Origin: a virus
Taxonomy: Duplodnaviria > Caudoviricetes
IMG/VR virus record: IMGVR_UViG_3300050016_000156
Coordinates: 522-64,521 of that record
Reading direction: 5' to 3' (one strand)
DNA: 64,000 bases
In this document: positions 1 to 58,298 of the stretch, one piece after another
How the letters are laid out: every line of letters begins with the position of its first letter
Numbering within the stretch: the first letter of the stretch is position 1
Position numbers and translations under genes: made by a program
The notes under the pieces: generated by a model
The model's database searches: none
What the model was told of the DNA's origin: nothing
The model's input: the letters and a program-made list of their open reading frames with translations, nothing else

Positions 1-694
1 CACGACCGGCCAAAGTCATGAGAGAAATGCTGTTCAGTGTGATGGATGTGTTGGCAAGAATGTTTCCAGACCAAACGTGGTTGTGCGCATCAAAAGTAAC
101 CGAACTTCCAGAAAGCCAATAAACATTGTCGGCTTTAGCGCCATTAATCAGGGCAATCGTGGTTGCGGCGGTAGTTACGTTCAACGCCGAGGGAACCTGA
201 AAAACGAACATAGGATTTACGAGGCCAGCGCCATCCAATGTGACCGTGCCGCCCGAGAAAAGCAGCGTACTCGTAGCCGCACCAACGAAACCAGGGCCTC
301 CGTTGAATCCTGTAGGCGTAGCGGTGAAGGTGGTCGTCCCAAAAGACGCGGCGATAGGGGTTGAAGTCAGCCCGTTCAAAAAGGTGTATGCGGCCAATCC
401 GGCTATGCGTGCTGCCGCAGCATCCGCGTTGTCGATCCCGTACGGGGGAACAACTACGCCTGGAGGAAAGCCCACAATCGACATGGTCGGCGCGGAGCCG
501 ATGTTTCCGCCATTAATTACGGAGTTGCCTGTGTTGGTGATCCCGGCGTACGCCAAAAGTGAGTAGTTACCCGCCGAGCCCAGTTGCGGGTTCGACGAAC
601 CGGGGATAGTCCCAAAATCAGAGGCAAGAATTTCAAAATACGCGCCGGGTGCCACAGACCCGCGAAACGAACTTGTATACCCTTTGCTTGACAT
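1..694 (-). CDS. DUF3494 / IBP-1 ice-binding-like protein (3' end truncated by window edge; not in ORF track)
   Basis: Manual translation from ATG at 694 (SD-like AAGGAA upstream) is open to position 1: ...LGSAGNYSLLAYAGITNTGNSVINGGNIGSAPTMSIVGFPPG...VTLDGAGLVNPMFVFQVPSAL...LINGAKADNVYWLSGSS...GNILANTSITL...LAGR, matching the hallmark DUF3494 blocks. Confidence 0.85.
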   Translation of the reverse strand, partial: MSSKGYTSSFRGSVAPGAYFEILASDFGTIPGSSNPQLGSAGNYSLLAYAGITNTGNSVINGGNIGSAPTMSIVGFPPGVVVPPYGIDNADAAAARIAGLAAYTFLNGLTSTPIAASFGTTTFTATPTGFNGGPGFVGAATSTLLFSGGTVTLDGAGLVNPMFVFQVPSALNVTTAATTIALINGAKADNVYWLSGSSVTFDAHNHVWSGNILANTSITLNSISLMTLAGR

Positions 695-749
695 GATATT
701 TTCCTTTTACCATCGGGAACCGATGGGACGCCCACAAATGTTAGGCATC

Positions 750-771
750 TCTACTTATGGATTGATAAGTC
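750..771 (-). promoter_or_regulatory. 22-bp putative late promoter motif, copy 1 (GACTTATCAATCCATAAGTAGA)
   Basis: One of 8 equally spaced copies; upstream of the DUF3494 gene and just after a terminator. Confidence 0.75.
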
Positions 772-781
772 AGTTTTCTCT

Positions 782-824
782 AAAAAAGAAAACAGCCCCC
801 AGAGGAAACTTTTCTTCTGGGGGC
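782..824 (-). terminator. Rho-independent terminator
   Basis: Minus strand GCCCCCAGAAG/CCTCTGGGGGC stem followed by TTTTCTTTTTT. Confidence 0.75.
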
Positions 825-848
825 CGCCCCTATCACGGTGCCGTTACC

Positions 849-1565
849 TTAAAACTTGTCGTTTTCCGTTGCCTTGTGGCGCGGGAACTCCATCACGAAG
901 GAAAAAGTTGATCCGCCGCCGAGGGCTCCTGTCCGATAGCAAGTTCCGTTCGGGCCGTTGCCGCCGGTGATACCATATGTTCCGTCGCACCGAGGATTCG
1001 ACTGAGTTAGCACGTGCCCCCCATCGAAGCTGAATGAGAGACGAGTACAAACCGCCCCGAGACAGCCGAAGCGAGCCGTGACTCCCAGTTCTACACCCTT
1101 CAAATGCGCTGACTCTAAACCGCTGGGGGTAATCCCATTATTGAACTGACTGACGTATTTGATGGAGACCCTGGTTGGCAAACCGCCGATGTATCCTCGG
1201 TGAATAAAACCGCCCGAAGCGAAGTCGCCGTCTTTGGTGACCTTCGTAACATCATACATCGAGTCGGCGACTGAGCCCGTCAGACCCCAGTTCTGGCTCA
1301 GCCAGATAATGCCGCCCGCTGTGGTGATATTCGCGCGTCCGCCGCCGAGCGCAACGTGAGTTTCAATCGGCGAAAATGTGTCTTTCAAATCCAGTTCAAA
1401 ATGTTTGGCGAAAGGAACTTCGACCGCCGCCATAACCCCAACCGATTTGTTGTCATAATCCAGCGCGCCTTCGGGTCCCAGTAGCCATCGGGTTTGAGCG
1501 TGCGTGGTTGGCGTGAATGCCAGGAAAGACAGAAGCACAAACAGGAACGAAAGAAATCTGCTCAT
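849..1565 (-). CDS. Secreted, probable outer-membrane beta-barrel protein
   Basis: Likely start MSRFLSFLFVLL at 1565 with GGAGG SD; signal peptide ending THA-Q; alternating amphipathic beta strands; Cys pairs. Confidence 0.55.
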   Translation of the reverse strand: MSRFLSFLFVLLSFLAFTPTTHAQTRWLLGPEGALDYDNKSVGVMAAVEVPFAKHFELDLKDTFSPIETHVALGGGRANITTAGGIIWLSQNWGLTGSVADSMYDVTKVTKDGDFASGGFIHRGYIGGLPTRVSIKYVSQFNNGITPSGLESAHLKGVELGVTARFGCLGAVCTRLSFSFDGGHVLTQSNPRCDGTYGITGGNGPNGTCYRTGALGGGSTFSFVMEFPRHKATENDKF

Positions 1566-1620
1566 AAAAAATCCTCCGAGTGTCAGTGTAGCCACTCGGA
1601 GGGAAGATGTCAAGTTATTT

Positions 1621-2103
1621 TTACTGTTGTTCTTTTTGCCGAATGGCGAGCCCGACCAGCCGATACTGCGGATGGGCTTCAACGATATGCGGGTTCCCGT
1701 CCAAATGTTCATCGGATGGTGCATTAAAGGACCACTCGCGAGGCGCAAACCATTCTTGGCAAATCATGCAAATGCCGCGTTCACGGTTGTCGGGGAAATT
1801 TCGGACGGCAGAAATGGCAAGTTTGCCCGTCGTGATGTAGGTGTGGTCGCACTGCTCGCGGCGCAGACGCTTGTCTTTCTCGCCTTGAATCTCGTCCGCC
1901 TTGAACTTCAGCTTGTCGCGCAACTTCCGCTGCTCAACAATCGGGTCCACGTACGGCTTGTTCAGGTCGCGCAGCATGGGCGTAAACTGCGACAACATCT
2001 CTTGCATGGCCGTCCGAATACCATCCGTGATGGCTGCGTTAACGTGCGCCGCAATTTCGGGTGTTATTGCCGTACTTCTGTTATTTTCATTTTCATGTCC
2101 CAA
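1621..2103 (-). CDS. Hypothetical protein, Cys/His motif, behind late motif
   Basis: 160-aa ORF; CDH...CMIC; AGGAG SD. Confidence 0.6.
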   Translation of the reverse strand: MGHENENNRSTAITPEIAAHVNAAITDGIRTAMQEMLSQFTPMLRDLNKPYVDPIVEQRKLRDKLKFKADEIQGEKDKRLRREQCDHTYITTGKLAISAVRNFPDNRERGICMICQEWFAPREWSFNAPSDEHLDGNPHIVEAHPQYRLVGLAIRQKEQQ

Positions 2104-2137: not shown

Positions 2138-2159
2138 TCTACCTATGGAATGATTAGTC
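2138..2159 (-). promoter_or_regulatory. 22-bp putative late promoter motif, copy 2 (GACTAATCATTCCATAGGTAGA)
   Basis: Repeat copy; identical to copy 4. Confidence 0.75.
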
Positions 2160-2748
2160 AGTTTTCCGTAAGAAGTTGTAAGGAGTTTGCTCGTTTAGCC
2201 GCTTCGCGAGCAAAGGCGGCGCGGGACATTTTTGCGCGAGTTTCGAGGGATTTTGGCTCCGTATGCTTTCCGAGATGAGCGACCCTCATCTTCGCTTTGG
2301 CTTCAGGGGAATGAAAATGCCCGAGGTGGCCCGTATATCCACGCAATCGCGCCACCATCTTCTCTCGAATTTGCTCGCTAAACCTACGACCCCGATTTTG
2401 TGTGTGTCCTTTGTGGGAATCACTCATGCGGCGACGAGTTTCATCAGACGGCTTAGCCATCCCTTCCCCGCCCGCCGTCAGATTATATCCGCAGCTTGGG
2501 TCTTGAGTATTAAACAAAGCAATCAGAAACCGCTCATACGCATCGGTTGTTTTTCGGTCACCCGATTGCGAAACTAGCACACGCCATGTAAAAGCAGCGG
2601 CCCCATATTTCCGCAAAGCAGAATAAAAACGACTTCGCCGCCCACCCCGAGCGTTTTTCTCGTGCTGCAGCCGCCGCTGTTCTAAAAGTTTGCTGGTTTG
2701 ACCAACATAACTTTTAAAAGTATAGCTGTTTGTGGCAAGATAAATCAT
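2158..2748 (-). CDS. GIY-YIG homing endonuclease with NUMOD3 repeats
   Basis: MIYLATN...YVGQT...R...E...GYNLTAGGEG, then HSPEAKAKM-type repeats. Confidence 0.9.
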   Translation of the reverse strand: MIYLATNSYTFKSYVGQTSKLLEQRRLQHEKNARGGRRSRFYSALRKYGAAAFTWRVLVSQSGDRKTTDAYERFLIALFNTQDPSCGYNLTAGGEGMAKPSDETRRRMSDSHKGHTQNRGRRFSEQIREKMVARLRGYTGHLGHFHSPEAKAKMRVAHLGKHTEPKSLETRAKMSRAAFAREAAKRANSLQLLTEN

Positions 2749-2754: not shown

Positions 2755-2783
2755 ATGCTATCACACTTCAAGCAGATTGGCAA
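2755..2783 (-). promoter_or_regulatory. Sigma70 promoter giving a leaderless transcript
   Basis: TTGCCA-17-TAGCAT-6nt-ATG(2748). Confidence 0.6.
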
Positions 2784-3357
2784 TATTTCTTTGCACTTGC
2801 TGCTCCCCGCCATGGCGGAAATCGGCGAGAGTTTCCGCCCACCTTTGTTCGTTGAAGCCGTCCTGGGGTTCACCAAACTCAGCAAGCACTTGTTCCCAAG
2901 TAACCGCCCCTTTTAATAGACAGTACACAATTACTGTTCGCCATCCGCGCCGTTCTTCGGTCGGAAGATTGCGGTCATCCACTAACGCCCAACTGAATTC
3001 CGTTAAAAAACCTTTAGGCACGCCCGTTAGAAACTGCACACAGCCAAGGGCAGATGAATACAACCCCCAATCTTCGGGAAAATTATAGGACTGTTGAACG
3101 AAAATGTGCGGATTTAGTTTCTGCAGACGAAAAATCAAATCACTATGATGCATTACCTCGCCTTTACGCCGCGACCAATCCTTGAACCAATCATGGTCGG
3201 ATTGCCGATATGTCTGGAGCGTCGGCTCAATCCTAGTTTGGATATACCGCTCGCGCGCTTCCTCCCACGGCTCGAAGTCTGCAGGCTTCATCGAGGCGAG
3301 ACGCTGGCGCTGCTTCTGCTCAAAATGTGCTGGCGACCACAGGTCCTGCGGCATCAC
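2761..3357 (-). CDS. Hypothetical protein
   Basis: 198-aa ORF in a tightly packed minus-strand run. Confidence 0.65.
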   Translation of the reverse strand: MMPQDLWSPAHFEQKQRQRLASMKPADFEPWEEARERYIQTRIEPTLQTYRQSDHDWFKDWSRRKGEVMHHSDLIFRLQKLNPHIFVQQSYNFPEDWGLYSSALGCVQFLTGVPKGFLTEFSWALVDDRNLPTEERRGWRTVIVYCLLKGAVTWEQVLAEFGEPQDGFNEQRWAETLADFRHGGEQQVQRNIANLLEV

Positions 3358-4151: not shown

Positions 4152-4661
4152 TTATGACTTAATCCTCCGAACCCAATCATTCAAGTCCGCTGCGTCATTC
4201 GGATTTGCGGCAGCAATTGCCTGGGCATGCATAATCATTTCCTGCTGAAATATATTCAACAAACGAATCGGGTCCGTTGCGTTTGTTCTCGCCAGAGTGT
4301 TGGGGCCAAAGATGCCGTCCATTTCCAAGTCAAGAACGGACTGCAAATTCTTCACGGCGGTGCCGACACCAAACAAGACGCCTAGATCGGCGAGTTTGTT
4401 GGCGATCCCCTGCACGCTGATTTGAGAATAGAGCGGCTTCCAATAATGTTCAATGTAGTATGCGATAGCTTGCTCGGGCGTGATGTCCGCAATCACAACC
4501 CCAGGCATGTCGAGTGTCGTGATGCCGTACTTCGTCCCGACGAGGGTTCCGACACCGACCTGCCCGCCTGTCCAGTTCGCGCGGTCTTTCGGGTTGTTTT
4601 GGAACCCGCCCTCGTGCGCGAGGTCTATCGTGATTAAAAAAGCTGTTCGTGCGTCTGCCAT
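4152..4661 (-). CDS. Endolysin, glycosyl hydrolase family 108 type
   Basis: HEGGFQNNPKD...GTKYGIT...YWKP...DLGVLFGVG...LQ...DGIFGPNT...WVRRI. Confidence 0.9.
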   Translation of the reverse strand: MADARTAFLITIDLAHEGGFQNNPKDRANWTGGQVGVGTLVGTKYGITTLDMPGVVIADITPEQAIAYYIEHYWKPLYSQISVQGIANKLADLGVLFGVGTAVKNLQSVLDLEMDGIFGPNTLARTNATDPIRLLNIFQQEMIMHAQAIAAANPNDAADLNDWVRRIKS

Positions 4662-5676: not shown

Positions 5677-6024
5677 CTACGCCTCGCCGCCCGCATCCTG
5701 CGACACGACATCCTCCAGAGGGACAGCCACTAACTGCGACTGCAGTATCTCGATCTGCTCGACTGCCGCGACTAGCTTCGCGTAAAGTTCAATCGTCTCT
5801 GCCTGACGCCGACTATCTTCCGCCACCATGTCCGCAATCAGAGACACCCGCAGGTCATACTGCGCCAGCAAGAAAGCGGTGTCCCCGGGAGTCACGGCGA
5901 GATGCGCTTTCAGATTTCCGCGAATCCCCTTGATGATGTCTTCTGCCGAACGAGTTTCTAGGACCTTCTTGCGTTCGGAGTTCTTTACCGCTCGTGCTGC
6001 CTGCTCGCCTACGCTGTGCGCCAT
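5677..6024 (-). CDS. Hypothetical coiled-coil protein
   Basis: 115 aa; AGGAG SD. Confidence 0.6.
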   Translation of the reverse strand: MAHSVGEQAARAVKNSERKKVLETRSAEDIIKGIRGNLKAHLAVTPGDTAFLLAQYDLRVSLIADMVAEDSRRQAETIELYAKLVAAVEQIEILQSQLVAVPLEDVVSQDAGGEA

Positions 6025-6205
6025 AGCATCTCCTGAGCAGTTGAATTTTAAGAGGGGGCTGGGGAGCGTTGCTCATGCGCTCCCCGCCTAGTAGTGCCGC
6101 CGAAAAGGAGGTAACGGCGGTCTTTCGGGCACGACCAGACTCGATGCCTAACATCGAGAGGTTGTATGCAGACAACAGCATGCCTGAAACCAATTCAGAT
6201 GTCAA
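6025..6205 (-). promoter_or_regulatory. Sigma70-like promoter plus ~150-nt structured leader
   Basis: TTGACA-17-CATGCT (6205-6177); several hairpins, one with loop TTACCTCCTTTT. Confidence 0.5.
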
Positions 6206-6645
6206 GTCTTTTCTGCGCGCCCCGTACAAATTCTACAATCAAAAGGGCGGACGCCGTGGCGGCAAACCGTCTCCCCATCCTTGATATTGTCTGTAACGAA
6301 ACCCCTCGATTCGGGGGGTTTTGATGAAGAGAATCGCGTGTTGCGGTCAGCGTGCGCGCGGCGATGGCAGGTCGGGCAAATAAACACAGAATTCTCCAGC
6401 GATATCTCGCCGCCCTTGCCTCGGTGCTTCTGCTCGTGCATATGCCCACCCTTCTCCGTCACCATAGTCCCGCACAGTTCGCAGTTTCCGCATGACCGCA
6501 TAAATATCTGGTGACGAATCTCTCCGACCGCTTTGACGTATTCCATCGTCAGATACTCTATTGAACGAGCGGCCTGTCGATTCTTGAAAATTCGAATCGC
6601 CTGCCCTTGGGTATTTCGTTCCACAATCGCAAGACGTTCTCTCAT
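6202..6645 (-). CDS. HNH endonuclease
   Basis: CELCG...HMHEQKHRGKGG...N...CPTCHRRAH. Confidence 0.85.
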   Translation of the reverse strand: MRERLAIVERNTQGQAIRIFKNRQAARSIEYLTMEYVKAVGEIRHQIFMRSCGNCELCGTMVTEKGGHMHEQKHRGKGGEISLENSVFICPTCHRRAHADRNTRFSSSKPPESRGFVTDNIKDGETVCRHGVRPFDCRICTGRAEKT

Positions 6646-7268
6646 TGTCCGTCTCCGCAGTGCGCCCCGAGGAATTCCTGCGCCAGTTTCGTCATCACGT
6701 CGAGCATCTGTGCCGACTTCGAAATTGTCGGCTTCGTCAGCGGCTCGGTCTTCATTGCCGTGGCAATCGCCTGCTCGAAGAGTTCACGCTGCTCGGGCGT
6801 CACCATGAATTCCATTTCCAAATCCATCCAATCGCCATCTTCCTCGGGCATCTTCAAGGCGGTCGATATGACCTTCTTCAATTCTTTGACGGTGATGTTC
6901 GGGTCGAGCGCGGCCCTCACAACATCAGGAGGTAGCACGAGCGCGTAATCCTTCGCGGCGCGCAAACGAATCGCCTTGGTGATGCCCATTGACGCCAACT
7001 GCTCTTTCGTGAACGTATCACTTAAATCCCTGACTGTTAAAAAGAATTGATGAAGTTGACCCGCCGACTTCTTTGATACGAGAGCCACTGCTCGCAAGTA
7101 ATCACGGAACGTATCATGCTGAACGCGCCATAACTGAAGTTCGGCGACTTCGAACAGCAGCCAGCCAAGGTGAGCATAACCGCTCTCACATGCTCCCTCG
7201 GCGGCGGCTAATGACGCCGCTTCGTAGTTAACAACTCGAAGCCGCTCTTCTGCGTTGATTTCCGTCAT
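6642..7268 (-). CDS. Hypothetical helical/HTH-like protein
   Basis: LGWLL...LWRVQHDTFRDYL motif, similar to the 12680-13342 product. Confidence 0.6.
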   Translation of the reverse strand: MTEINAEERLRVVNYEAASLAAAEGACESGYAHLGWLLFEVAELQLWRVQHDTFRDYLRAVALVSKKSAGQLHQFFLTVRDLSDTFTKEQLASMGITKAIRLRAAKDYALVLPPDVVRAALDPNITVKELKKVISTALKMPEEDGDWMDLEMEFMVTPEQRELFEQAIATAMKTEPLTKPTISKSAQMLDVMTKLAQEFLGAHCGDGQ

Positions 7269-7269: not shown

Positions 7270-7554
7270 TCAGTTCACCTTCGGGCGGTGGGTGCTCGGG
7301 GCAATCCCAGGATTCTTTTTCTTCTTGATGATTTCCTCGGCGTCGAGGTCTTCAGTGAAGACTGTTCCGACTTGGTTCCGCTTCTGCGGAATAGATTGAT
7401 TCGCAGGCTTCACGCACGACCAGCAGGCGGGTTTCCATGTCCCGCTGGAGTCTTTCTTGGCGTAGCCGCCTTCGATGCCGCCGCAAAATCCACAGACGCC
7501 GCGGTTGTCGGGAGAGGTCCATTCACATCCTGGTTCGATTACGAGTTCTCTCAT
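7270..7554 (-). CDS. Small zinc-finger protein
   Basis: CGFC...CWSC. Confidence 0.55.
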   Translation of the reverse strand: MRELVIEPGCEWTSPDNRGVCGFCGGIEGGYAKKDSSGTWKPACWSCVKPANQSIPQKRNQVGTVFTEDLDAEEIIKKKKNPGIAPSTHRPKVN

Positions 7555-8130
7555 AATTTCTCCCGCAAAATATTTTTGAGTTTGTCTGGCACAACTACCT
7601 GACAGCCGAGACTTCGCAACCAGTCCGCAAGTTCTTCTATACTATGCCCAGTATGCTGTCCCACCAGTCGAATGGTTAAATTATCCGGGTCATTACATGC
7701 CTTACCTTTTGGGCCATGGTGAACCTGCTCGCACTGTTGAAGAGGTCGACCGATAATTTTAGACATAACGTGGCGGTGTTCAAAAACTTCCTTACCTTCT
7801 ACAGTAATTACACGATATCCAGCCTTATTAATAGTCCCATCTCCGTGCGGCGCACATAAACCTCTCGAACCGCCGTTGAGTAAGTTGCTTACATGGACGC
7901 CGAGGCGTGCGCGGCCTTTTCTATCAACACAATCCCAAGTAGTTAGCGTCCCATGTGTGTTCCTCTTCTGCTTTCCCATCTTAACGACGTGCAGATTGGT
8001 AAACCACAAGCCAGTTAAATCAGGAGAATGAGGACCCCCATGACCAGCAAAATAAATACATTCGCGAGGCTCCATCATACTCGCTTTTTTAATTATATTC
8101 TTGCACTTGTCGCGGTTATGTGGCGACATG
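7551..8130 (-). CDS. HNH homing endonuclease
   Basis: GYRVI...EHRHVM...IGRPL...EQVHH...CNDPDNL; start estimated at MSPHNRD. Confidence 0.8.
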
Positions 8131-8613
8131 TTGGTTTCTCCGTCTGCGAGCGAGGATGACGGCGCTCGCTCCGTTCTCGGTGAAGAACATCCGCATCCCA
8201 CTCCGATAATCTTTCTCGTCGAGCGTCTTCACGTATTCCTGCAGCGCGCCGAGAATTTCTTCGGCCTCGCATTCGGTCAAGAGTTTGGCGACCGACCGAG
8301 CGGACGGCAGGACCCCAGTCAGTTCATACGACACCGCCGAGACCGTGGCGATACGCGGGTCGTCCATGTCGGCTTTCTTCTCCGCGAATTCGGGACCCAG
8401 GCGGGCGTCCACGACTTTCACGTATTCGGTCAGCGGATACTTCGGATGGGTGTCTTGAACCTCACGGCACCACGTCTCGAAGTCAGCCTCGACGGCGGCG
8501 CGGCCGTAGGCTTCCTCAATCAGTTCGAACTTCTCTTTCATCCGAGATAGCCCGACGTGGGTGTTGTGGAGAACCCTAGCGGCGATGCGTGGTAGCGACT
8601 TCTGAAGGCTCAT
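8116..8613 (-). CDS. Hypothetical protein
   Basis: 165 aa; GAGGAG SD; TTGACT-17-TACAGT promoter at ~8646-8673. Confidence 0.65.
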   Translation of the reverse strand: MSLQKSLPRIAARVLHNTHVGLSRMKEKFELIEEAYGRAAVEADFETWCREVQDTHPKYPLTEYVKVVDARLGPEFAEKKADMDDPRIATVSAVSYELTGVLPSARSVAKLLTECEAEEILGALQEYVKTLDEKDYRSGMRMFFTENGASAVILARRRRNQHVAT

Positions 8614-11882: not shown

Positions 11883-12683
11883 TCAAGATTTCACCTCGGA
11901 AATATGAGAAGTGCCTAGACAGTTCTGGCGGCGCGTTGCGCGCTCTTTCGCTAGGAGTTTCTCCTCGGGCGTCCCAACCTTTGTACCTGCCTTCCATGAT
12001 GATTTGTATTCACAATATTGTGGTTCGGTATACCCAGAAATCCACCTACAAAAAACCAACTTTGGTTGAACTTTTGCGCGAGCGAATGACCCCTTCCCGT
12101 CTAGTTTTGGGCTCCCCGTCAAGCCGACCCCGATGTGATTTTTAGTACTGCCGTAAGTCTCCCCGACCATAGTCCAATTATCGGCAAGATAGAGCGCCCC
12201 GACTCGCTGTCGCCCATCTTCTAAATCCTCTCGCAAAACGAAAGTTTCAAATCCATAAGGTTTGACGCCATAGAGGTATTCCCAGTAGCCCACCACTGTT
12301 TTGCGCCACAGCGCAAGACATCGCGTCGCCAAGTTTCGCTCTGGCTTTTCGAGCCGAAAAACTGTATTGTCGATAATTCCGTTCAACACCTGTTCTCGAT
12401 TGTTTTGCGTGATGTCAAAAAATGAGTCTCGGACCCCCGTGGCGTAGACGGCCCCGCCGCCAGAGATGGCTCCGACGTTTTCGCCCTTGTACCAAATAAG
12501 AAAATGAATCTGCTGTCCGTGGTGTCCTCGCGGCATCCCTTCTTTTTTTGACATCGGGCCTAAACGCGCACGCTCTAATTCTGACATTTGCTCTAAGGCC
12601 AGCATCTTTTCGACGTAGTGGCGTTTCTCAAATTCCACGATGGATGAAGAACTGCAGAAAGTTAAATAGAGTTCTGGCTTCAT
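11883..12683 (-). CDS. DUF4338 (DruA-like / Mom-related GNAT-like) protein
   Basis: HY...GQQIHFLI...GAI...RDSF...NTVFRL...NLATRCLA...W...YG...FETFV...GALYLADNW..VGETYG. Confidence 0.7.
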   Translation of the reverse strand: MKPELYLTFCSSSSIVEFEKRHYVEKMLALEQMSELERARLGPMSKKEGMPRGHHGQQIHFLIWYKGENVGAISGGGAVYATGVRDSFFDITQNNREQVLNGIIDNTVFRLEKPERNLATRCLALWRKTVVGYWEYLYGVKPYGFETFVLREDLEDGRQRVGALYLADNWTMVGETYGSTKNHIGVGLTGSPKLDGKGSFARAKVQPKLVFCRWISGYTEPQYCEYKSSWKAGTKVGTPEEKLLAKERATRRQNCLGTSHISEVKS

Positions 12684-24558: not shown

Positions 24559-25077
24559 CTAGCGTGCTGTCAAGCGATTTCGCAAATATTCGATGACTGG
24601 GAGAAGATTTTCTGGATGCGCGGCGGCGTCAAAGAACCGTTCAACCATACCGAGCCCGTAATTACACTTGCCGCACAGGATACCGCGAATCGACCACGGC
24701 ATCATAATTTGCTTGATAGATGCTCGCGCGAGCGTTTTCGTTTTTGCATGTCGCCAGCCAACGATTTCGCCTTTTTCATCATAGGCTGTTGCGCACCATT
24801 TTAATCCCGCGTTTCGTAACCCTTCGGCGGTTTCGCGCACAGTTTGAATTTTGAAATGGAAATGATCTACGCAGGGGTATCCGTGGGCGTCGAGGGGGCC
24901 GCCGCAGATTTTGCAGAGATTGTTTTGTTGGGCGGCGCGGTGCTCGCGCTCGGCGAGGGTGATTCCGTACTTACGCTGAAGTCCAAGGTCTTTGGCGCGG
25001 TCTTTTTCCGCTGCTGTTCTTGCTTTTCTAATCGCCATTTTTTTCTTTCGTCGAACCGCTCTGCGTTCATGCGCCAT
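24559..25077 (-). CDS. Endonuclease VII-like homing endonuclease
   Basis: KYGITL...Q...CKICG...VDHFH...RGILCGKCNYGLG. Confidence 0.85.
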   Translation of the reverse strand: MAHERRAVRRKKKMAIRKARTAAEKDRAKDLGLQRKYGITLAEREHRAAQQNNLCKICGGPLDAHGYPCVDHFHFKIQTVRETAEGLRNAGLKWCATAYDEKGEIVGWRHAKTKTLARASIKQIMMPWSIRGILCGKCNYGLGMVERFFDAAAHPENLLPVIEYLRNRLTAR

Positions 25078-25176: not shown

Positions 25177-28100
25177 TTATTTTTTCTTGAGACCTTTGCC
25201 GAGCCCCTTCTGCATCGCTTCCTGTTTCGCCTTCATCATTTCCGCAACCTTCGCGGTGTTCTCGGCGTGGACATCCTTGACGTTCGCACCGAAGTTGAAG
25301 TCGGTGGAACCTAGCTCTTCTTCTGGTACTTCTCGGGGAGTTCCGACTCCAGTTCCCCGTCCAGTTCCGCTGGCGGGTTCCCCAGAAACTCCAGCCGCAA
25401 ATAGTTTTCCCTGGTCAGCGGGAGCCCCAGTTCCTGCAGCATTTTCTCGGTTCCATTCAGTTGCGTAGTCCCAGATTCTGTTTCGGGCTTGGTCGGCTGT
25501 GATTTTGCCATCTGAGTGTTCCTTCCAAATTGCGTCTATCGCTTGCTGGTTCTCGGGCGTCTTAAAATCATCGGTAAATACGTCCCGAATCTTGGTCCAC
25601 GTAGGCGATTGTAGCCTACTTGGGATGGGAATGTCAAGTTCTTTCGCGGCTAGTCGGTAAGCCGCGTCGTGGAGAGCGTACGTTCCCTTGAGTCCATACT
25701 CACCGTTCTTAATGTTGCCGAAGTTGTCCCGAACGGCGGGGATCTTTCCTGACATCGGGCGCAACTGTGCCACGTTGATGGCGTGCGTGTCCATCGTTAG
25801 GTAGCGCGGGTCATCTGGCGACAACATGTTGTTGTAGAAATTCCGAACCTTGTGCCCGTACCCGAGGTTCTTGCTGATGTTTTCGGGCGACCCATCTTTC
25901 AAAATTTCAATCGCTTTCTGAATGTGAGACTGGAAACTCCAACCGACGTTGCGCGGCGACCCATCTTGATTGAGCGCAAGACCGTTCGATGTGCCGTCAG
26001 GATTCCATGTCTGGTACTCGCGAGGATTGTGACCCTCGTCGTACAGGCGCAACCAAATTGCCTGCTGTTCGGTTGTCGGCAGTTCGGCTAGCGTCTTTCC
26101 TTGGACCTTTTTGATGAGCGGTTTGAATGAACTGTTGGCAGGCAGAGACGTAATATTATCCGCCGCGTCCTGCATCTCGGGCGTGAACTTCGTGGCTTGC
26201 TGATTCTTCCAGATATTCGCGGTGCGCTCAGCGAGCGAGGTATTCTGGTCCCAATCCGTCATCGGCGATTCCACGGCGGTCACGCCTGCAATCTGGTGCG
26301 GAGTAAAGCCATGCTGTGCGGCAACCGCCTGCACGCGCTCGTGCGCGCCGACTGGATACCACTTCTCGTCGCGTTTAATGGCATCAGGCAACATCTTGCT
26401 CATTACAAATTTGATGTTGTCCGCCGCATGCCGAATGTATGCATTGGCGTGCGCCAGCGCGTCGCCCTCGGGCGGTGTGAATCCTGGCGTCGTATTCGTT
26501 CGGTTCACCATCTTTTGCAGATACCCTGGCGCGGCCTTCGCGGCGTCCATATCCGAAGTCATATCCCGCTGAGTGTGGTCTTCAACGACTTCGCCCTTGA
26601 CCTTCTTCGTGGGCACACGAGTGCTGACGGTTGGAATGTCTTTCGACGCTGCAGGCGCGGCCCCAGCCGCAGGCGCTTCAGGAGTGCCGCCCGTCGAGGG
26701 CTTGAATACTGCAGCCTGTTGAGCCGCCGCAGCCGTTGCTTTATCCGCGGCTTTCTGTTCTTTCGCGGACAATTTCGGAGCAGGCCCTTCGCCTGTGCCG
26801 CCTGTCTGAATTTCTCCCTCACCGCCGAGATGATATATGGCTTTCTGATTTGCGTCTTTGCCTGCAGCAACCGCTTCAGCGCGGTCGGCATAGGTCTTGC
26901 TGACATCCAACACCGCTTTTCCTGTGTCGGGGTCTTTCCATGTGCCGACAGCGTGGTCACCCTTCTCCAATACATCGGCGTTATCTGCTTTGAACTTCGC
27001 CAGAACTTCGGGCGTGAGCTTGTCGACTTGGACGGTGCGCTCAGGATATGCGCCAACCGAATATAAATCTTTTCCTGCCAGATTTTCTCCCGCAGGCGTG
27101 AAGGTCGAGCCGCCGCCTTCTTCATGAGCGGACAGTTGATCGTCTTCAGGCGTCTTAATCTTTTCTTTCGAGACTATGCCTTTTTTAGCTTCGGCAGGCG
27201 AAGTTCCAGTTGCTTGCGCACTTCCGCCTTCTCCTCGGGCGACATTGCCTTCACGTCCTGTAAGACCTTCTCCGCTAACTGCTCGGTTGTCAGGTTGTTC
27301 TTGTCCTGTGGCATTTGCTATTCTCCTCTGTGCTTCTTGATGCATTGATGTCAATCGGTCGGGGCTAGCGTGAAACTGGCGAGAGAGTCCTGCTTCACGG
27401 AAGCCTGCGTTCTCATTTATGATACCTGAAACAGCGGGATGTTGCAAGTACTCTTTCCCTGCATCAATTGCCTTATGCATGTACTCCATCGCGTCTTCGT
27501 GACTGACTCCCGCCGCCTGCAGAATCTGGTATGCGCGCGACCCATCCCCGCCAGTTCCGAGAAAGAAATTATGATTGGCGCTCCGAGGCAAATCATTGAA
27601 AACCTCATCTGCCGCGATACCGCCCATCAGGGTTTTCACAATTGGGGCCACTTTATCTGGGCGGACCTGCCCTGCGGGGTTAAAGAGTATGTTTTCTCGC
27701 CCAGGCCACCGTACCGCGGCGCGCGCGTCTTTCCCCAGATCGGGATGACTCGAACTGAGCATGCCCCCCGTAACGAGACCTTCGTTTTGTCCAACCATTG
27801 CGTGCCCGAGTTCATGACGAATAGTGTGAATTTCAGGGCGGCCCGCCGATGCTGGCATCTTCGCCAGTTTGCCTGTCGGCACAGAGTACTCTGTCGACGG
27901 CTCGCGCTCACCCATCTTTTCGATGCGCCACGAGTAAGCCCGCGTGCCTGGGAATTTTTTCTGGGCAACCGCAATTGCGTTCTTCGATGAGAAAGCCTCG
28001 ATGGGCTCCATGTGAGTGGTGCCATCAGCATCCGTAATTTCAACGGTGTACTTTTCTTTCAGAGGCGACTGCAGTTCCTTGGAGAGAAGGTCTTGTTGGT

Positions 28101-29949
28101 CAGGATGCGCGCCAATTTGTTTCAGCATAGGTTCGATGTCGGTGTCGGTCGCTAATTCCTTGTACGGGGCCGTCTTGATGTCCCGAGGATTGTCAGCGGT
28201 CTCCATCATCACATTGCCGTAGCCCAACCCCTTGGCGACTCCCTGTTTGAGAGCATCAATTTGCTCGGGGCTGATACCCTCACGAGGCACGGAAATATGC
28301 AATGTCGTTCCACCTTTATCGGTAGTGGGCCGAACACGAACGGCCTTCGAGTCGTTGATGAACGCCACACGGTTGTCGGGGGCTTCCCGAGTCGGGCCTT
28401 TCGAGCCCTGCGCCCAATCAATCGCCATATCGTGGTGGGTGCTGCCGAGCGGAATAAACTTCCCGTCAGGCGCAATGAAAGAAGGACCGTCCGCAATCTT
28501 CGTTGGGTCGGTATGAGTTCCAAACTTGTCCGCAATCTTCTGCAGGTCGGGATGATATGCGACAGCGGGTGCTGGGGGCTCAGGAGTCTTCCCTACAAAC
28601 TTCCCGCCTACGGATGCGAAGGCTTCTGGGTCCACATGACCGGGACCGGGAAGCACTGCAGAAATCGACCCCTCATCCTCGCCGATGTTTTTATAATATG
28701 CTCCGGCGGCTTCCGACTGTCCTTTTATTTTTGCACCGATGCGGTTTGCGCCTACATCCGTCAGAGGACGGGCAGGAGTATTTCGCATCGGACCTGTTAT
28801 CTTCACAGGCATGACGTTGGGTTTTGCGTCTGTTGCGACGGGAGTTTTGTCAGAATACACCGCCTTTCCGATAGTCGGATAGTGGTCTTCTTCGGGCACA
28901 TCAACATTATACCCCGTTACATTATTTCCTGTCGGGTCGAGTTTCGCCAAAGTTTTCTTGCCTGCTAAAAGGGTTTTTCCGTACTCCTGCGTACCATCCC
29001 ATGGTTGTCCATCCGCTCGAATTCCGATGCGCGCCTCAAGGGCTTGAGTTGCAGCCCTCTGCGTACCGACGTGGAGACCCTGCTCGCCGCCCCGCAAATC
29101 CCCGCTGGGTGTTCCATGATAGAGTTGTTGCGGAACAGACCCGACTTTCTTGCCGCCGAGTTTGGCGAACCCTGCTTCGAGACTGCCCTCGGGTGCTTTC
29201 GCTTCGAGTGCGGCCTTGCCTTCTTCCTTGGCGCTGGCAACGGCAGTCTGCGCCAAATCTTTCAAGTGTGTCCCAACTTTTGATGCGACTTCACCCGCAC
29301 CTTTGCCCGCATGCGTGGCCGCTTCAAGAGCCATGAATGAATCCACACCCATGTGCGTCAAGATGCGCTGAGTATCAGCAAAAGCATCCGCCCGTTGTTC
29401 GGGAGTCGTGGCAGCCTTACCTTTTTCAATAGACGCTTTCAATTCAGGGTACTGGTCGTAAACACCTTTGCCCATCTGCAGTGCAAACAGCCCCTCCGCC
29501 ACTTTCTGAATAAGAGCGGGAGTCTCACCGAGCCCGGCAGTCGCCGCAACCGTGCCGATGGTGCCGGGCGATGTCAGACCACCAGCAGATTCCAACGCCC
29601 CCGTCAGGACAGGAGCCTGTTTTTGCTCAGCGGGCGTCAGCGCCTCTTCAGGCGACAGAAATTGCTCACGCCCATACTTTGGATTTTCCACTGTCCGAGA
29701 TGAGTATCGGGGAATGCCTTCCGTGACAATCTTCTTAGCCTTCTGAACAACCGACGGTTCCGGGGCAGCCTCGATAGTTGGGCCGGACGGATTCAAATTA
29801 GTTTTGAGAAAAGGCGCACGGGTATCCTTAGCCGGATCGTACTCAGGATTCAGGTCTATTGGGATGGCCTGAGACGCAGTCGGGTCCGTGATCGGAATAG
29901 AATCCGGCACAGGCGTTGGGGTCGGCGTAACTGGGGTCTCGTTGGCCAC
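25177..29949 (-). CDS. 1590-aa multidomain (polyvalent) protein, probably virion-delivered
   Basis: LYHGT...GLHVGT (ART-like); HELGH...LMGGIAADE...GGD (M41-like zincin); GTWKD...LDVS...NQKAIY domain; WY...SP...KVRNFY...TMDTHA...LQSPTW (DUF7178-like). Confidence 0.75.
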   Translation of the reverse strand: MANETPVTPTPTPVPDSIPITDPTASQAIPIDLNPEYDPAKDTRAPFLKTNLNPSGPTIEAAPEPSVVQKAKKIVTEGIPRYSSRTVENPKYGREQFLSPEEALTPAEQKQAPVLTGALESAGGLTSPGTIGTVAATAGLGETPALIQKVAEGLFALQMGKGVYDQYPELKASIEKGKAATTPEQRADAFADTQRILTHMGVDSFMALEAATHAGKGAGEVASKVGTHLKDLAQTAVASAKEEGKAALEAKAPEGSLEAGFAKLGGKKVGSVPQQLYHGTPSGDLRGGEQGLHVGTQRAATQALEARIGIRADGQPWDGTQEYGKTLLAGKKTLAKLDPTGNNVTGYNVDVPEEDHYPTIGKAVYSDKTPVATDAKPNVMPVKITGPMRNTPARPLTDVGANRIGAKIKGQSEAAGAYYKNIGEDEGSISAVLPGPGHVDPEAFASVGGKFVGKTPEPPAPAVAYHPDLQKIADKFGTHTDPTKIADGPSFIAPDGKFIPLGSTHHDMAIDWAQGSKGPTREAPDNRVAFINDSKAVRVRPTTDKGGTTLHISVPREGISPEQIDALKQGVAKGLGYGNVMMETADNPRDIKTAPYKELATDTDIEPMLKQIGAHPDQQDLLSKELQSPLKEKYTVEITDADGTTHMEPIEAFSSKNAIAVAQKKFPGTRAYSWRIEKMGEREPSTEYSVPTGKLAKMPASAGRPEIHTIRHELGHAMVGQNEGLVTGGMLSSSHPDLGKDARAAVRWPGRENILFNPAGQVRPDKVAPIVKTLMGGIAADEVFNDLPRSANHNFFLGTGGDGSRAYQILQAAGVSHEDAMEYMHKAIDAGKEYLQHPAVSGIINENAGFREAGLSRQFHASPDRLTSMHQEAQRRIANATGQEQPDNRAVSGEGLTGREGNVARGEGGSAQATGTSPAEAKKGIVSKEKIKTPEDDQLSAHEEGGGSTFTPAGENLAGKDLYSVGAYPERTVQVDKLTPEVLAKFKADNADVLEKGDHAVGTWKDPDTGKAVLDVSKTYADRAEAVAAGKDANQKAIYHLGGEGEIQTGGTGEGPAPKLSAKEQKAADKATAAAAQQAAVFKPSTGGTPEAPAAGAAPAASKDIPTVSTRVPTKKVKGEVVEDHTQRDMTSDMDAAKAAPGYLQKMVNRTNTTPGFTPPEGDALAHANAYIRHAADNIKFVMSKMLPDAIKRDEKWYPVGAHERVQAVAAQHGFTPHQIAGVTAVESPMTDWDQNTSLAERTANIWKNQQATKFTPEMQDAADNITSLPANSSFKPLIKKVQGKTLAELPTTEQQAIWLRLYDEGHNPREYQTWNPDGTSNGLALNQDGSPRNVGWSFQSHIQKAIEILKDGSPENISKNLGYGHKVRNFYNNMLSPDDPRYLTMDTHAINVAQLRPMSGKIPAVRDNFGNIKNGEYGLKGTYALHDAAYRLAAKELDIPIPSRLQSPTWTKIRDVFTDDFKTPENQQAIDAIWKEHSDGKITADQARNRIWDYATEWNRENAAGTGAPADQGKLFAAGVSGEPASGTGRGTGVGTPREVPEEELGSTDFNFGANVKDVHAENTAKVAEMMKAKQEAMQKGLGKGLKKK

Positions 29950-30542: not shown

Positions 30543-31139
30543 TCACGCCAAAACTTCTAAAAACGCCATCTTTTGATTGTACTCATGTAAGTCTCGCATT
30601 GCGGTTTTACCGCGCTTTTCAGCGCCTTGATCGGCCCAAGTCCCCCAGTCAACATTTCCAGGCTCATAGTCTCCTGTATCCAAGTGTCGGCTAAGAGAAT
30701 GTTTCGGCGAAGGGCGATCACCCATGTCGGCGAGGAAATTCTCAAATGTCAACCAACGCTCGCAAACACCTACATTGCGATACGCTCGCGCCCCATGAAA
30801 ATTTTTATTGGTGGCACGAGTCAACATATTGCTCCAAATACGATAGGTGCCTTGATGCAACTCCGACGCATGTCGGTCTTGTCCACCGTGTCGAAAATTT
30901 CGATTCTCTGCGCCGCGTTGATGTTGATTTCTTATCTGCGCGCGTTCGCTAGATTTTTCGCGGAGCAAACACCCGCACGATTGAGTGCGCCCATCCCGCA
31001 AGCTGCCGCTAGTTGTTTCGCATATCTGCCCGCAAGAACAGACACAGCGCCAGAAAGCACGCCGCTGAACTATTCCCATCAATTCCTGCACCAGTAAACG
31101 ACCGAATTGTTGACCAACCAAATCAATCACTTTGCCCAT
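30543..31139 (-). CDS. HNH-related homing endonuclease
   Basis: DLVGQQFGRL...WRCVCSCG...TQSCGC...W.NM..R...VCERWLTFENFLADMGDRP...YEPGN..W; TTGACA-18-TAGACT-6nt-ATG. Confidence 0.85.
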   Translation of the reverse strand: MGKVIDLVGQQFGRLLVQELMGIVQRRAFWRCVCSCGQICETTSGSLRDGRTQSCGCLLREKSSERAQIRNQHQRGAENRNFRHGGQDRHASELHQGTYRIWSNMLTRATNKNFHGARAYRNVGVCERWLTFENFLADMGDRPSPKHSLSRHLDTGDYEPGNVDWGTWADQGAEKRGKTAMRDLHEYNQKMAFLEVLA

Positions 31140-31814: not shown

Positions 31815-31888
31815 TGGAGCCCAATCGACGAATCGAACGCCAGTCTGCTGAGTACAGGTCAGCCGTCCTACCACTGAACGAATCGGGC
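31815..31888 (-). tRNA. tRNA-Thr(UGU), atypical C33/C38
   Basis: GCCCGAT/ATTGGGC acceptor, D-arm GTTC-AGTGGTA-GGAC, anticodon arm GCTGA-CCTGTAC-TCAGC, TTCGATT T-loop, 3' TCCA. Confidence 0.85.
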
Positions 31889-31978
31889 AATCTGTTTCCA
31901 TCCGCACTTGCAAACGAAACCAGTCTCACGTTTTTGCGAGTCTCGTTGAATCGTTTCTTTACAGCGATGGCACCGCAT
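31868..31978 (-). CDS. 36-aa zinc-ribbon peptide overlapping the tRNA-Thr 5' end
   Basis: MRCHRCKETIQRDSQKRETGFVCKCGWKQIARFVQW*; TTGACC-18-TATCAT-7nt-ATG. Confidence 0.45.
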   Translation of the reverse strand: MRCHRCKETIQRDSQKRETGFVCKCGWKQIARFVQW

Positions 31979-32026
31979 GGAGTCCATGATACCACCCAGA
32001 CCTGCTCGCGGTCAAGCACAATATTG

Positions 32027-32197: not shown

Positions 32198-32203
32198 CAA
32201 TAT

Positions 32204-32270: not shown

Positions 32271-32324
32271 ACAAATCTGGGCCGCAAACTCCTGCCTTAA
32301 CGTGGCGGCCATACGTTTGCAAAA

Positions 32325-32401: not shown

Positions 32402-32409
32402 TCTGATAA

Positions 32410-35850: not shown

Positions 35851-35872
35851 TCTACTTATGGATTGATTAGTC
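35851..35872 (-). promoter_or_regulatory. 22-bp putative late promoter motif, copy 3 (GACTAATCAATCCATAAGTAGA)
   Basis: Upstream of the major capsid gene. Confidence 0.8.
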
Positions 35873-35955
35873 AAAAACCTAAAGGGAGGGGGGCTGAGTG
35901 GGGACGTGTGAGCGTCCCCGTGTCTCGCCTAAGCGGGTGTGGCCAACACTCGAAA

Positions 35956-37119: not shown

Positions 37120-37141
37120 TCTACCTATGGAATGATTAGTC
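37120..37141 (-). promoter_or_regulatory. 22-bp putative late promoter motif, copy 4
   Basis: GACTAATCATTCCATAGGTAGA upstream of the scaffold gene. Confidence 0.8.
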
Positions 37142-37160
37142 AGTTTTCCGTAATAAGATG

Positions 37161-40413: not shown

Positions 40414-40435
40414 TCTACTTAAGGCAGGAAAAGTC
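40414..40435 (-). promoter_or_regulatory. 22-bp putative late promoter motif, copy 5 (GACTTTTCCTGCCTTAAGTAGA)
   Basis: 8 nt upstream of the portal ATG. Confidence 0.65.
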
Positions 40436-40454
40436 TTATTGTGCGGCAGATGCC

Positions 40455-45169: not shown

Positions 45170-45191
45170 TCTACTTATGGAAAGAAAAGTC
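45170..45191 (-). promoter_or_regulatory. 22-bp putative late promoter motif, copy 6 (GACTTTTCTTTCCATAAGTAGA)
   Basis: Intergenic; 12 nt before ATG 45157. Confidence 0.75.
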
Positions 45192-45958
45192 TTAATTTGA
45201 GGTAGGTGCACAATTTGCACAACGTCCGGCACTGTTGTACCGTGCTACGACCTTATGGCAAGAGACACACTCGATATGGGCCGCGTCATTGACGGCGGGT
45301 ATGGCAGGGGCTGGGCCAGGAATCGCAGAGGCCGATACGCCGTCTTTACCTGCAGGCCCAGGCGCGCCTGTTCGCCCGCGACGACAGATCGCCGTCACTG
45401 ACAAGATGAGACTTGCGCCTGCAATGATAAGACTCGGTTCGACCATATGGGTTCCTTCGTTATAGAGTTACAGTACCAGTTGTCGCTATCAGTTCCTTTT
45501 GGTCGACCCCCTGCGGGCAATGATGCAACAGAAGATACGCAAGGTAATTATTCGCAAGAGCGGCGGTAGAGAAAGAGCCAAGCACTGCGCGACTGGCGTT
45601 GGCGCTTGCGTTCGTGCCATTAACCAATCCCTGTATTATCACGGAGTCCCCGCCGTTCGGTATGATTGCCTTTATTTCAATTATGTGCTTCATAAATCTC
45701 CTATTGGCTGAACGTACCGGCCGCCGTTACGCTCGGGACGGTCACAGGCGGCGTTGGGGCGATGAGTCCTGCGGCTATGGCCGCCTTTAAGATCATGGGC
45801 GCAATAAGATTCTCGACAGAAAGCACGTTCGGTTGCTGATTAATCAAAGATAGCCATGGGGTAATCGTGACCGGGCCAAGGCCGTTCACCGTTGCCACTA
45901 TTTGGCAGACATCGTTGCCGATATTTTCGGCGCTTAGAATAACAAAAGTGTTTGCCAT
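45192..45958 (-). CDS. Three small genes (45192-45446 TM + collagen-like + CxxC; 45460-45693; 45701-45958)
   Basis: Each has an SD; tightly packed. Confidence 0.55.
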
Positions 45959-50331: not shown

Positions 50332-50353
50332 TCTACTTATGGAATAGAAAGTC
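50332..50353 (-). promoter_or_regulatory. 22-bp putative late promoter motif, copy 7 (GACTTTCTATTCCATAAGTAGA)
   Basis: Upstream of the fibre-gene block. Confidence 0.75.
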
Positions 50354-50826
50354 TTAATGCTTGGCGTTCTTACCCGGCCTACTTAACCCAGCCTTCGAGA
50401 GAGCCACAGCGATCATCATCTTGCGTTTGGCTGCGCCTGTTTTACCTGTCGCAGTCACCGTTTTTGGAGTCTTAGCGTAGACTTCTTTGAAGGCTTCTTT
50501 TTTACTCATGTCGGCCATTATCATTCCTTGTCTTCGGGTCCGCCTTCGAGCGGCTGATTCACGAATTTGCAACATCCGTGGCACATATCAATCTTCGCAA
50601 CAGGCCGCCCATCGAGCAGCACGACGCGGTTCTGCATCGCAGGGTCCGCCAGGACTTTCGGATGAATACAGAACGGCTCGTCGGACGCAGTCTTGTGAAT
50701 GCAGTCTTCGCAGTGGTACGGCCCGTGTTCCTCGTAGCCCGAGTCAGGCGTCCCAGTCTCATCGTAGATGGACCCCAGGCGTGGTTGCCCGAGCACAGAG
50801 AGGCCAGAGATGAAGAAAGGGTCCAT
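50354..50826 (-). CDS. Two small genes: basic peptide (50354-~50518) and Cys-rich protein (50521-50826)
   Basis: KMMIAVALSKAG; HCEDC...C...CHGCC. Confidence 0.5.
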
Positions 50827-58203: not shown

Positions 58204-58225
58204 TCTACTTATGAAACCAAAAGTC
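58204..58225 (-). promoter_or_regulatory. 22-bp putative late promoter motif, copy 8 (GACTTTTGGTTTCATAAGTAGA)
   Basis: Head of the protease/GroEL/TerS block. Confidence 0.7.
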
Positions 58226-58298
58226 AGTTTTCTGTAATGAGGGTGTCAGCATGCTCCTGATAGAACGCCCGAGCCGTCCCGGGCGCTCGACTGAAGCA

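Follow-up and report, generated by a model that had tools for sequence, protein, structure and literature searches.

What does a bacteriophage do with a protein of the type that microbes use to bind ice? The question is raised by the gene at the start of a 64,000-nucleotide stretch of tailed-phage DNA (hereafter the window), which covers positions 522-64521 of a linear viral contig (G000:C1, 64,521 bp, from IMG/VR record IMGVR_UViG_3300050016_000156) with an estimated completeness of 65%. The encoded protein carries a DUF3494 domain, the commonest microbial ice-binding fold; virus-encoded copies of this domain are already known, and have so far been read as auxiliary genes that protect the host. 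Our chief new result is that the DUF3494 solenoid of this protein is an insertion into a conserved phage base domain. The question is then less whether the phage protects its host against freezing than what its own particles adhere to.

The gene occupies the minus strand from an ATG at 694, and within the window its open reading frame (ORF; 2..694) encodes 231 amino acids and is open at the edge. The same frame continues for 521 nucleotides further left, to base 1 of the contig, giving a protein of at least 405 amino acids that is still open. Because the nearest homologue (P0001, 99% identity) has 409 residues and the full-length homologues (n = 22) have 401-415, about four residues are missing from an expected length of ~409. 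An earlier annotation made from the letters of the window (the sequence-only reading) had described an ORF of at least 231 residues running off the edge, with four DUF3494 sequence blocks and no obvious signal peptide. All four blocks are present in the translation, and the N-terminus (MSSKGYTSSFRGSVAPGAY...) has, by inspection, no hydrophobic segment of the kind expected in an export signal. That reading therefore held for the part of the protein in the window; it did not extend to the last 170 residues at the C-terminus, to the domain insertion, or to the paralogues described below.

The identity of the domain is clear from both sequence and predicted structure, two of the checks that had been proposed, as had leftward extension of the contig. 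The PF11999 profile matches the 231 residues in the window at E 5.9e-26 and the 405 residues at E 8.6e-27, with 94.6 bits where the cut-off is 28.7; this match spans residues 47-247 of the protein and positions 2-205 of the 208 in the profile. An AlphaFold2 (AF2) model built on 23 sequences has a predicted local distance difference test score (pLDDT) of 77.8 overall and mostly 74-92 in the solenoid (means of 10-residue blocks), and its predicted fold is the triangular beta-solenoid with one long alpha-helix (residues 92-107) that defines the IBP-1 type. Foldseek returned 31 matches in the PDB at E<=1e-3. The rows listed down to rank 31 are all ice-binding proteins of the DUF3494 type, with 6eio (template-modelling (TM) score 0.80, 33% identity) and 7bwx (TM 0.86) as the best. 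In a viral structure library, the matches at the same threshold were three giant-virus DUF3494 proteins and no phage protein.

Homology searches place the protein in a phage-only family with three forms: the base alone, the base with a ~130-residue insert, and the base with DUF3494. In the base forms (174-194 residues, 27 aligned; e.g., P0121 and P0122), an N-terminal part of ~25 residues is joined straight to a C-terminal part of ~145 residues. The forms of ~305 residues have an unrelated insert of ~130 residues at the same insertion point, and the DUF3494 forms (~405 residues) have a solenoid of 215 residues between the N-terminal peptide and the C-terminal domain. The N-terminal peptide is near-invariant (S3, G5, Y6, T7, S8, S9, and R11 are the same in 23 of 23 rows) yet is modelled as disordered (pLDDT <50 for residues 1-12), a combination that fits a docking peptide. 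In the canonical DUF3494 fold, as set out in the part of PMC11645318 drawn on here, the last coil is placed beside the first, which makes the domain suited to insertion into a loop. The base protein is a naturally permissive display scaffold, occurring with no insert, with ~130 residues, or with 215 residues at one point. Furthermore, a metagenomic protein of 558 residues (P0155) has a GDSL esterase (PF13472, 34.6 bits) upstream of a complete base form, including the N-terminal peptide, and this fusion suggests that the scaffold can also carry an enzyme.

A subdomain of the base-form model (pLDDT 81.5) resembles known receptor-binding and carbohydrate-binding modules. With an exhaustive aligner, base residues 87-148 matched the C-terminal part of the receptor-binding domain of the tailspike of cyanophage Pam1 (Z 8.0, root-mean-square deviation 1.6, 56 residues aligned); further likenesses of this subdomain, over 56-62 residues, are to the tail fibre of Carin-1 (Z 6.5) and, at Z 4-4.8, to chitin-binding modules of the CBM5/12 type. 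Remote profile matches to the base fall in a ~45-residue repeat of large proteins, one of which has Pfam CBM_5_12 over the cut-off. The prediction of a three-copy base-form complex scored 0.41 against a mark of 0.42. Several candidate matches were set aside: Pfam searches with the 27 base forms (E<=1) gave DUF7723 in eight, with an insignificant best E of 0.03; a PDB profile search gave a sortase at E 0.1 only, which was rejected; and tblastn of the base form P0138 against the 50,697 deposited phage genomes gave chance-level rows only (E 0.9). By sequence, neither the DUF3494 form nor the base form belongs to a known tail-fibre family among the PHROGs, and neither has a match in INPHARED. Rows for the PHROG "head closure Hc3" on the insert of the ~305-residue form were weak (E 9.5e-4 and 3.9e-5) and were not relied on. 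The Protein Atlas model of this insert is like parts of various phage structural proteins (TM 0.60-0.67), and the Protein Atlas matches, which are clusters of hypothetical viral proteins, all lie below the thresholds of the tool and serve as leads only.

The solenoid is a mosaic. Within the 23-row alignment, the window protein was compared with 19 more distant members, to which it is 66% identical in the N-terminal part, 67% in the first half of the solenoid, and 69% in the C-terminal domain; solenoid residues 108-235, in contrast, are just 37% identical (range 32-41%). The same residues are 75-80% identical to P0024-P0026, proteins whose N- and C-terminal regions differ and whose architectures are unrelated. 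This stretch holds five (beta2-beta6) of the six strands mapped to the b-face, the putative binding surface discussed below. Relatives of P0026 are found on other viral contigs of 42-186 kb. On one of these (L023, 3442-9738; also in the near-identical L022 and L024), a 2098-residue protein has the DUF3494 subtype in its middle (residues ~880-1052), its gene being flanked by genes for 1125 and 935 residues, and on another viral contig the same solenoid subtype lies within a 577-residue protein. The window protein is 55% identical to the former over 256 residues and 53% identical to the latter over 233 residues. When P0026 was compared with the deposited phages by tblastn, the one match obtained covered 94 residues of a hypothetical protein; two neighbours of the gene on L021 had none. 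These comparisons indicate that the C-terminal half of the solenoid has been exchanged with other phage proteins, including the 2098-residue giant. Swapping of the binding part among phage surface proteins that are otherwise unrelated would be the usual mark of host-recognition modules, and together with the insertion architecture and the alternative inserts it fits a swappable adhesin module better than a dedicated cryoprotectant.

The same observations bear on the possibility that the solenoid binds no ligand and is purely structural, serving as a stiff spacer or shaft, and that binding is left to the CBM5/12-like subdomain or to other proteins. Phage fibres often have beta-solenoids as rigid elements, insert-free base forms exist, and the base domain holds a carbohydrate-binding-module-like subdomain of its own. 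Recombination targeted to the solenoid surface, however, suggests selection on binding, and with first and last coils side by side (PMC11645318, in the part drawn on) the inserted solenoid would be a side knob rather than the extension of a shaft. We regard this possibility as improbable.

Members of the family sit in two kinds of structural block. The first is a block with a tail-fibre gene, headed by the DUF3494 form, an arrangement seen in relatives only (G001 and L007). G001 is a complete genome of 99,668 bp with direct terminal repeats, whose portal and capsid proteins are 74% and 91% identical to those of the window; its DUF3494 form (5692-6939) is its sole member of the family, and is followed on the same strand by genes for 107, 489, 489, 383, and 1790 amino acids. 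The 383-residue protein matched 14 PHROGs, nine of which are tail-fibre families (best E 4e-27). PDB sequence searches with four of the downstream G001 proteins gave nothing usable, and a TonB-receptor row (E 0.0076) was rejected. In L007, a tail-fibre C-terminal match lies three genes downstream of the DUF3494 form. By local BLAST, L006 and L007 are syntenic with the window, in the order endolysin, a gene for 195-216 residues (66-76% identical to window 2761-3357), a gene for 160 residues, and the DUF3494 form; the 160-residue gene is directly upstream of the DUF3494 form in L006 and G001, and in L007 a small homing-endonuclease-like ORF stands between. The second kind of block is that of the head genes: in L011 and L012, the capsid gene is followed after ~3 kb by a family form of ~310 residues. 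In L012, the portal gene and then the scaffold-like gene precede the capsid gene, after which come five ORFs of 135-228 residues and the ~310-residue family gene; L011, which begins at the scaffold-like gene, has four ORFs between the capsid gene and the ~310-residue form.

In both L006 and L007 a base-form gene comes directly after the DUF3494 form and is followed by larger genes. Since the longest contig listed is 4127 nucleotides for both P0001 and the base form P0138, we infer that in the window phage, too, a base-form gene lies just beyond the end of the contig. The contig ends four codons short of the expected stop, within the C-terminal domain that the DUF3494 form has in common with this expected paralogue, so the assembly may have broken at the repeat formed by the shared domain.

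Gene location also bears on the idea that this is an auxiliary gene with no place in the virion, whose product builds up in the infected cell and, once freed at lysis, protects the host or the lysate from ice. PF11999 genes on three Arctic viral operational taxonomic units have been read as cryoprotective auxiliary genes (PMC11515562, in the part available), and the window gene does come after the lysis region with its GH108 endolysin. The solenoid is, however, embedded in a phage-only scaffold family located in structural blocks, and the upstream motif of the gene is the same as that of the head genes. Among 185,579 prokaryotic species genomes there was no full-length member of the family (one of 69 candidates had a 42-residue motif only), and the gene thus lacks the cellular homologue expected of a host-derived gene. 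Moreover, a protein without a signal peptide would not be exported before lysis. On balance, we regard the auxiliary role, too, as improbable.

The DUF3494-form gene is preceded by a terminator and then by a promoter-like motif (Table 1), both of which the sequence-only reading had pointed out. The terminator hairpin has a folding free energy of -27.4 kcal/mol (z -3.65), and one of 200 shuffles folds equally well. For the motif, the 22-mer has three matches at up to three mismatches against 0.00 expected, and its 10-nucleotide core has 10 matches at up to one mismatch against 2.69 expected, a count that none of 100 shuffles reaches. Nine of the 10 cores are on the minus (gene) strand, and eight of these nine have the upstream GACT box. 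The eight boxed copies precede the DUF3494-form, 160-residue, capsid, scaffold-like, and portal genes and three further genes, and none lies within the stretch of lysis and replication genes at 2.2-35.8 kb. The 22-bp motif had been said to be common to the capsid, scaffold, and portal genes; this is so for the first two, while the portal copy is a variant and not the same 22-mer. A loose regular expression for the motif was not above shuffles (9 vs. 6.2 in G001; 7 vs. 4.5 in the window), and the statistics therefore rest on the 22-mer and the core.

The exact core was not found in G001, where a variant (GACTAATCA..CTATAATTGTAGG) was recognised by reading upstream regions, in seven of the nine genes read; these include the DUF3494 form, the first 489-residue gene that follows it, and the portal, scaffold, and capsid genes. 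The motif keeps its position between phages with protein identities of ~50-90%, which speaks for a genuine promoter of a structural gene class. A sigma-70 scan found no site before the DUF3494-form gene (two sites in 3 kb, with 1.9 expected), and by our reading the spacing of the motif does not fit sigma-70. Its core resembles the 3' end of T7-type promoters, and the gene annotations of the window include neither a phage RNA polymerase nor a sigma factor.

Given this context, we put at about even the chance that the DUF3494-form protein is a late surface protein that associates with the virion and is encoded in the tail-fibre block, with the solenoid displayed as an adhesin and a ligand that may include ice. 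Such a protein would be expressed late, together with the structural (tail-fibre) gene block. Its base domain would consist of the conserved and probably flexible N-terminal peptide, a beta-sandwich, and the small CBM5/12-like subdomain, which is of a type that phage tailspikes and fibres carry at their C-termini. The complete DUF3494 solenoid, seated in a loop of the base domain, would project from the scaffold and present its flat b-face as the binding surface. The most likely role would be reversible adhesion of the particle to a repetitive surface, with a host or matrix polysaccharide as the most likely putative ligand and ice as a possible one. A late, virion-displayed protein had also been proposed in the sequence-only reading, and what speaks for this proposal is contextual: the gene's own copy of the head-gene motif, and the tail-fibre or capsid neighbours of family members in relatives.

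Could the ligand be ice itself? By sequence, the solenoid aligns with AnpIBP (7bwx, E 1.2e-18) and EfcIBP (6eio, E 6e-18) at 31-33% identity, and both of these proteins have measured ice activity. As described in the part of PMC7277481 used here, the ice-binding site of AnpIBP is the b-face, whose strands are listed; 70% of the residues of this site are A, G, S, or T, and 17% of thermal hysteresis is left in the variants S153Y and T156Y. We carried the numbering of that source over to the phage protein via a HMMER alignment, and the resulting map of the b-face is thus our own and comes from the alignment rather than from model coordinates. The mapped rows are A50-GITNT, T143-LLFSG, S169-ALNVTT, S197-SVTFD, T216-SITLN, and R231-ALAV. 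AnpIBP S153 corresponds to S197, which is invariant in the 23 rows, and T156 to T200, which is at least 90% conserved. Fourteen of the 20 residues mapped outward in this way are A, G, S, or T, with L144, F146, and R231 also outward. Because the serine and threonine positions belong to the general consensus of the family, the putative b-face can be called compatible with ice binding but not diagnostic of it.

The habitat of the gene is likewise compatible with ice binding. Apart from the possible source run, a peat run yielded a contig of 2489 nucleotides over window 1-2098 with 71 differences, and a permafrost run from a different study yielded identical small contigs at window 1-110 and 189-339. 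The freshwater run X6 gave no cover over the DUF3494-form gene and supports no claim on habitat. Cold soil or peat had been suggested as the source to look for in sample metadata; the peat and permafrost runs agree with this, although peat and lake labels do not show freezing.

A working ice binder on the particle, which tethers virions to ice or to its liquid veins or limits recrystallisation damage during freezing and thawing, would have the same virion context as the adhesin. It would also account for the likeness to AnpIBP and EfcIBP, for the equivalents of the two critical AnpIBP residues, for b-face rows such as AGITNT, SSVTFD, and TSITLN, and for the presence of this stretch in peat and permafrost. 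Ice is, however, invariant as a ligand, yet the half of the solenoid with most of the b-face rungs has been exchanged and has 37% identity within the family; sister genes carry a non-solenoid insert, or none, on the same scaffold; the serine and threonine positions are those of the family consensus; L144, F146, and R231 map outward; and the habitat labels do not show freezing. In addition, DUF3494 proteins are both ice-binding and substrate-binding or adhesive, and occur in many environments, according to the part of PMC12337378 consulted. We therefore consider ice as the working ligand to be unlikely. A bolder version is that phages of seasonally frozen peat and permafrost display a working ice-binding solenoid on a dedicated scaffold, expressed with the structural genes, and that several lineages trade the module as a cold adaptation of the particle and not of the host. 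This we think decidedly unlikely, but if it were true, virions could adsorb to the surfaces of ice grains or to brine veins, where hosts concentrate on freezing, or could resist recrystallisation damage. Ice-binding virions would represent a novel way for a phage particle to adapt to frozen soils; if the ligand is not ice, the protein could offer an experimental handle on the many DUF3494 proteins outside icy habitats.

Several results weigh against a virion-displayed adhesin of the tail-fibre block. Foldseek with the base-form model gave no match in the PDB at E<=1e-3, and the fold matches to the whole base domain are weak (Z 3-5), with C-terminal domains of tailspikes and fibres among them. 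Searches of PHROGs gave no family for the DUF3494 and base forms, and no member of the family falls in a PHROG of known function; tblastn found no relative of the DUF3494 form in the deposited phage genomes. The RNA run X23 covers the gene with just 35 nucleotides at four differences, which permits no claim of expression or habitat, so that late timing is something we infer. The window contig stops inside the gene, so that the downstream tail block is read across from relatives. Not all of the genes behind the motif are obviously structural, the exceptions being the EndoVII-like gene and ORFs of no known function. Finally, the resemblance of the putative b-face to an ice-binding site, with S197 and T200 kept and small or hydroxyl-bearing residues at 14 of 20 positions, favours ice as ligand when taken together with the peat and permafrost runs.

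Table 1. Positions of the DUF3494-form gene, its domains and upstream signals, and other features of the window (protein features in residue numbers)
Feature	Position	Strand	Remarks
DUF3494-form gene, residues 1-231	1..694	(-)	ORF, PF11999, homologues, model
Conserved N-terminal peptide	residues 1-35 of DUF3494-form protein		
Inserted DUF3494 solenoid	residues ~36-250 of DUF3494-form protein		
Conserved C-terminal base domain	residues ~263-405 of DUF3494-form protein		outside the window
Ribosome-binding-site-like AAGGAAAA	699..706	(-)	4 nt before ATG, read from sequence
Promoter-like motif, GAAAACTGACTTATCAATC then core CATAAGTAGA	750..779	(-)	55 nt before ATG of DUF3494-form gene
Intrinsic-terminator-like hairpin (790-829) with U-tract (780-789)	780..829	(-)	ends the inserted gene upstream
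160-residue gene	1621..2103	(-)	upstream neighbour of DUF3494 form in relatives; 48% identity to L006 3221-3727
Motif copy before 160-residue gene	2138..2167	(-)	
GH108 endolysin	4152-4661		lysis region
Motif copy before major capsid gene (34791-35786)	35851..35880	(-)	BLAST copy 35851-35873 and core scan
Motif copy before scaffold-like gene (35956-37086)	37120..37149	(-)	
Variant motif, TAAGACTTTTC box and core with 1 mismatch	40414..40443	(-)	8 nt before portal ATG (40405)
Variant motif before small ORF	45170..45199	(-)	
Variant motif before EndoVII-like gene (49810-50265)	50332..50361	(-)	leads into genes for 781 and 512 residues
Motif copy before 200-residue gene (57598-58200)	58204..58233	(-)	BLAST copy 58203-58237 and core scan
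Homing-endonuclease-like genes 1-5	2158-2748, 6202-6645, 7551-8201, 24559-25077, 30543-31139		
Homing-endonuclease-like genes 6-10	34095-34748, 37522-38136, 49810-50265, 51363-51890, 53750-54202		

Nearly all genes of the window phage are on the minus strand. Those identified include the large terminase, an SU10-type portal (PF23899), the capsid protein, and a replication and recombination module with DNA polymerase, helicase, primase, SSB, Erf, and a UvsX-like recombinase. The nearest terminase among the 50,697 deposited phages has 32% identity over 32% of the query, and the lineage thus seems to have no studied relative.

Between the 160-residue and DUF3494-form genes lies an ORF for 238 amino acids (849-1565, minus strand) with a clear signal peptide (MSRFLSFLFVLLSFLAFTPTTHAQ) and its own terminator. 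It has no Pfam or PHROG match, and its product is possibly an outer-membrane or periplasmic protein. Because it is absent from this position in L006, L007, and G001, it has the look of an inserted moron. Positions 1174-1433 are covered, with one difference, by a contig from a metatranscriptome, and several contigs from freshwater runs cover the gene.

Elsewhere, the replication module encodes a 266-residue protein (11883-12683, minus strand) with a Pfam match to DruA of Druantia defence that barely exceeds the cut-off (27.5 vs. 27 bits, E 2.1e-6), and a GroEL-type chaperonin (52164-53795, minus strand; phrog_5725 E 8e-116, PF00118) shares 68% identity with the G001 chaperonin. Homing-endonuclease-like genes (GIY-YIG/NUMOD3, HNH, and EndoVII), ten in all, are scattered among the core genes, including between portal and scaffold, and their positions differ among the window, L006, L007, and G001. 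Three tRNA genes (Thr-TGT, Ile-GAT, and Ala-TGC; 31815-32702, minus strand) are found just downstream of the head genes. A 1590-residue protein (25177-29949, minus strand) has a C-terminal DUF7178 match (E 9e-21); the G001 gene at this position encodes 953 residues, of which a stretch of 63 is common to both, and this large protein therefore seems to be highly variable. In G001, a block at 24.4-32.4 kb (L019 7467-15424, minus strand) with a family-2 glycosyltransferase (GtrB-like, PF13641 E 4.9e-22) has no counterpart in the window.

In the literature searched, with most subscription journals outside its scope, no DUF3494 protein was described as a phage structural protein, nor did we find in print the inserted solenoid, a scaffold family with three insert states, the location in structural modules, or the exchange of solenoids among phage surface proteins; in PMC12923769 and PMC10405475, ice-binding occurs in reference lists only. 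The closest comparison is with the IBP-1 proteins (AnpIBP 7BWX, EfcIBP 6EIO, FfIBP, and TisIBP), which the phage protein resembles in the PF11999 domain, the fold, the b-face rich in small and hydroxyl residues, and an identity of 31-33%. Whereas those are free secreted proteins, export being usual though not universal among functional ice-binding proteins, the phage protein has no signal peptide, holds its solenoid inserted in another domain, and is encoded in a structural gene block. A DUF3494 domain on a support that does not itself bind ice is reportedly also present in SfIBP_1 of Shewanella frigidimarina (6BG8), which, in work attributed to Vance (2018), is said to combine DUF3494 with tandem beta-sandwich domains and to have been proposed as an ice adhesin. 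The match to 6bg8 is E 4.4e-8 by fold and 3.2e-9 by sequence. In contrast to the phage protein, SfIBP_1 is a cellular surface protein, with domains in series rather than inserted and with unrelated support domains.

The PF11999 genes on three Arctic viral contigs are likewise virus-encoded and from cold habitats; they were read as host cryoprotection, with homologues in Synechococcus phage S-SKS1, and the part of that report available (PMC11515562) presents them without structural context. The absence of any tblastn match in the deposited phages indicates that the window protein is not a close relative of those homologues. The Pam1 tailspike (7EEA) and the Carin-1 fibre (8CK1) share with the phage protein the CBM5/12-like subdomain (Z 8.0 and 6.5), a tail-fibre neighbourhood (in relatives), and modular exchange of the binding part. 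The window protein differs from them in having neither membership in their families nor a long trimeric shaft, and its solenoid belongs to the IBP-1 type, not to the pectate-lyase type. Ig-like and FN3-like accessory domains on phage structural proteins are dispensable and exchangeable, and are thought to give weak adhesion. The logic of display would be the same here, but the displayed part is a 215-residue DUF3494 solenoid, which is inserted into a loop rather than appended.

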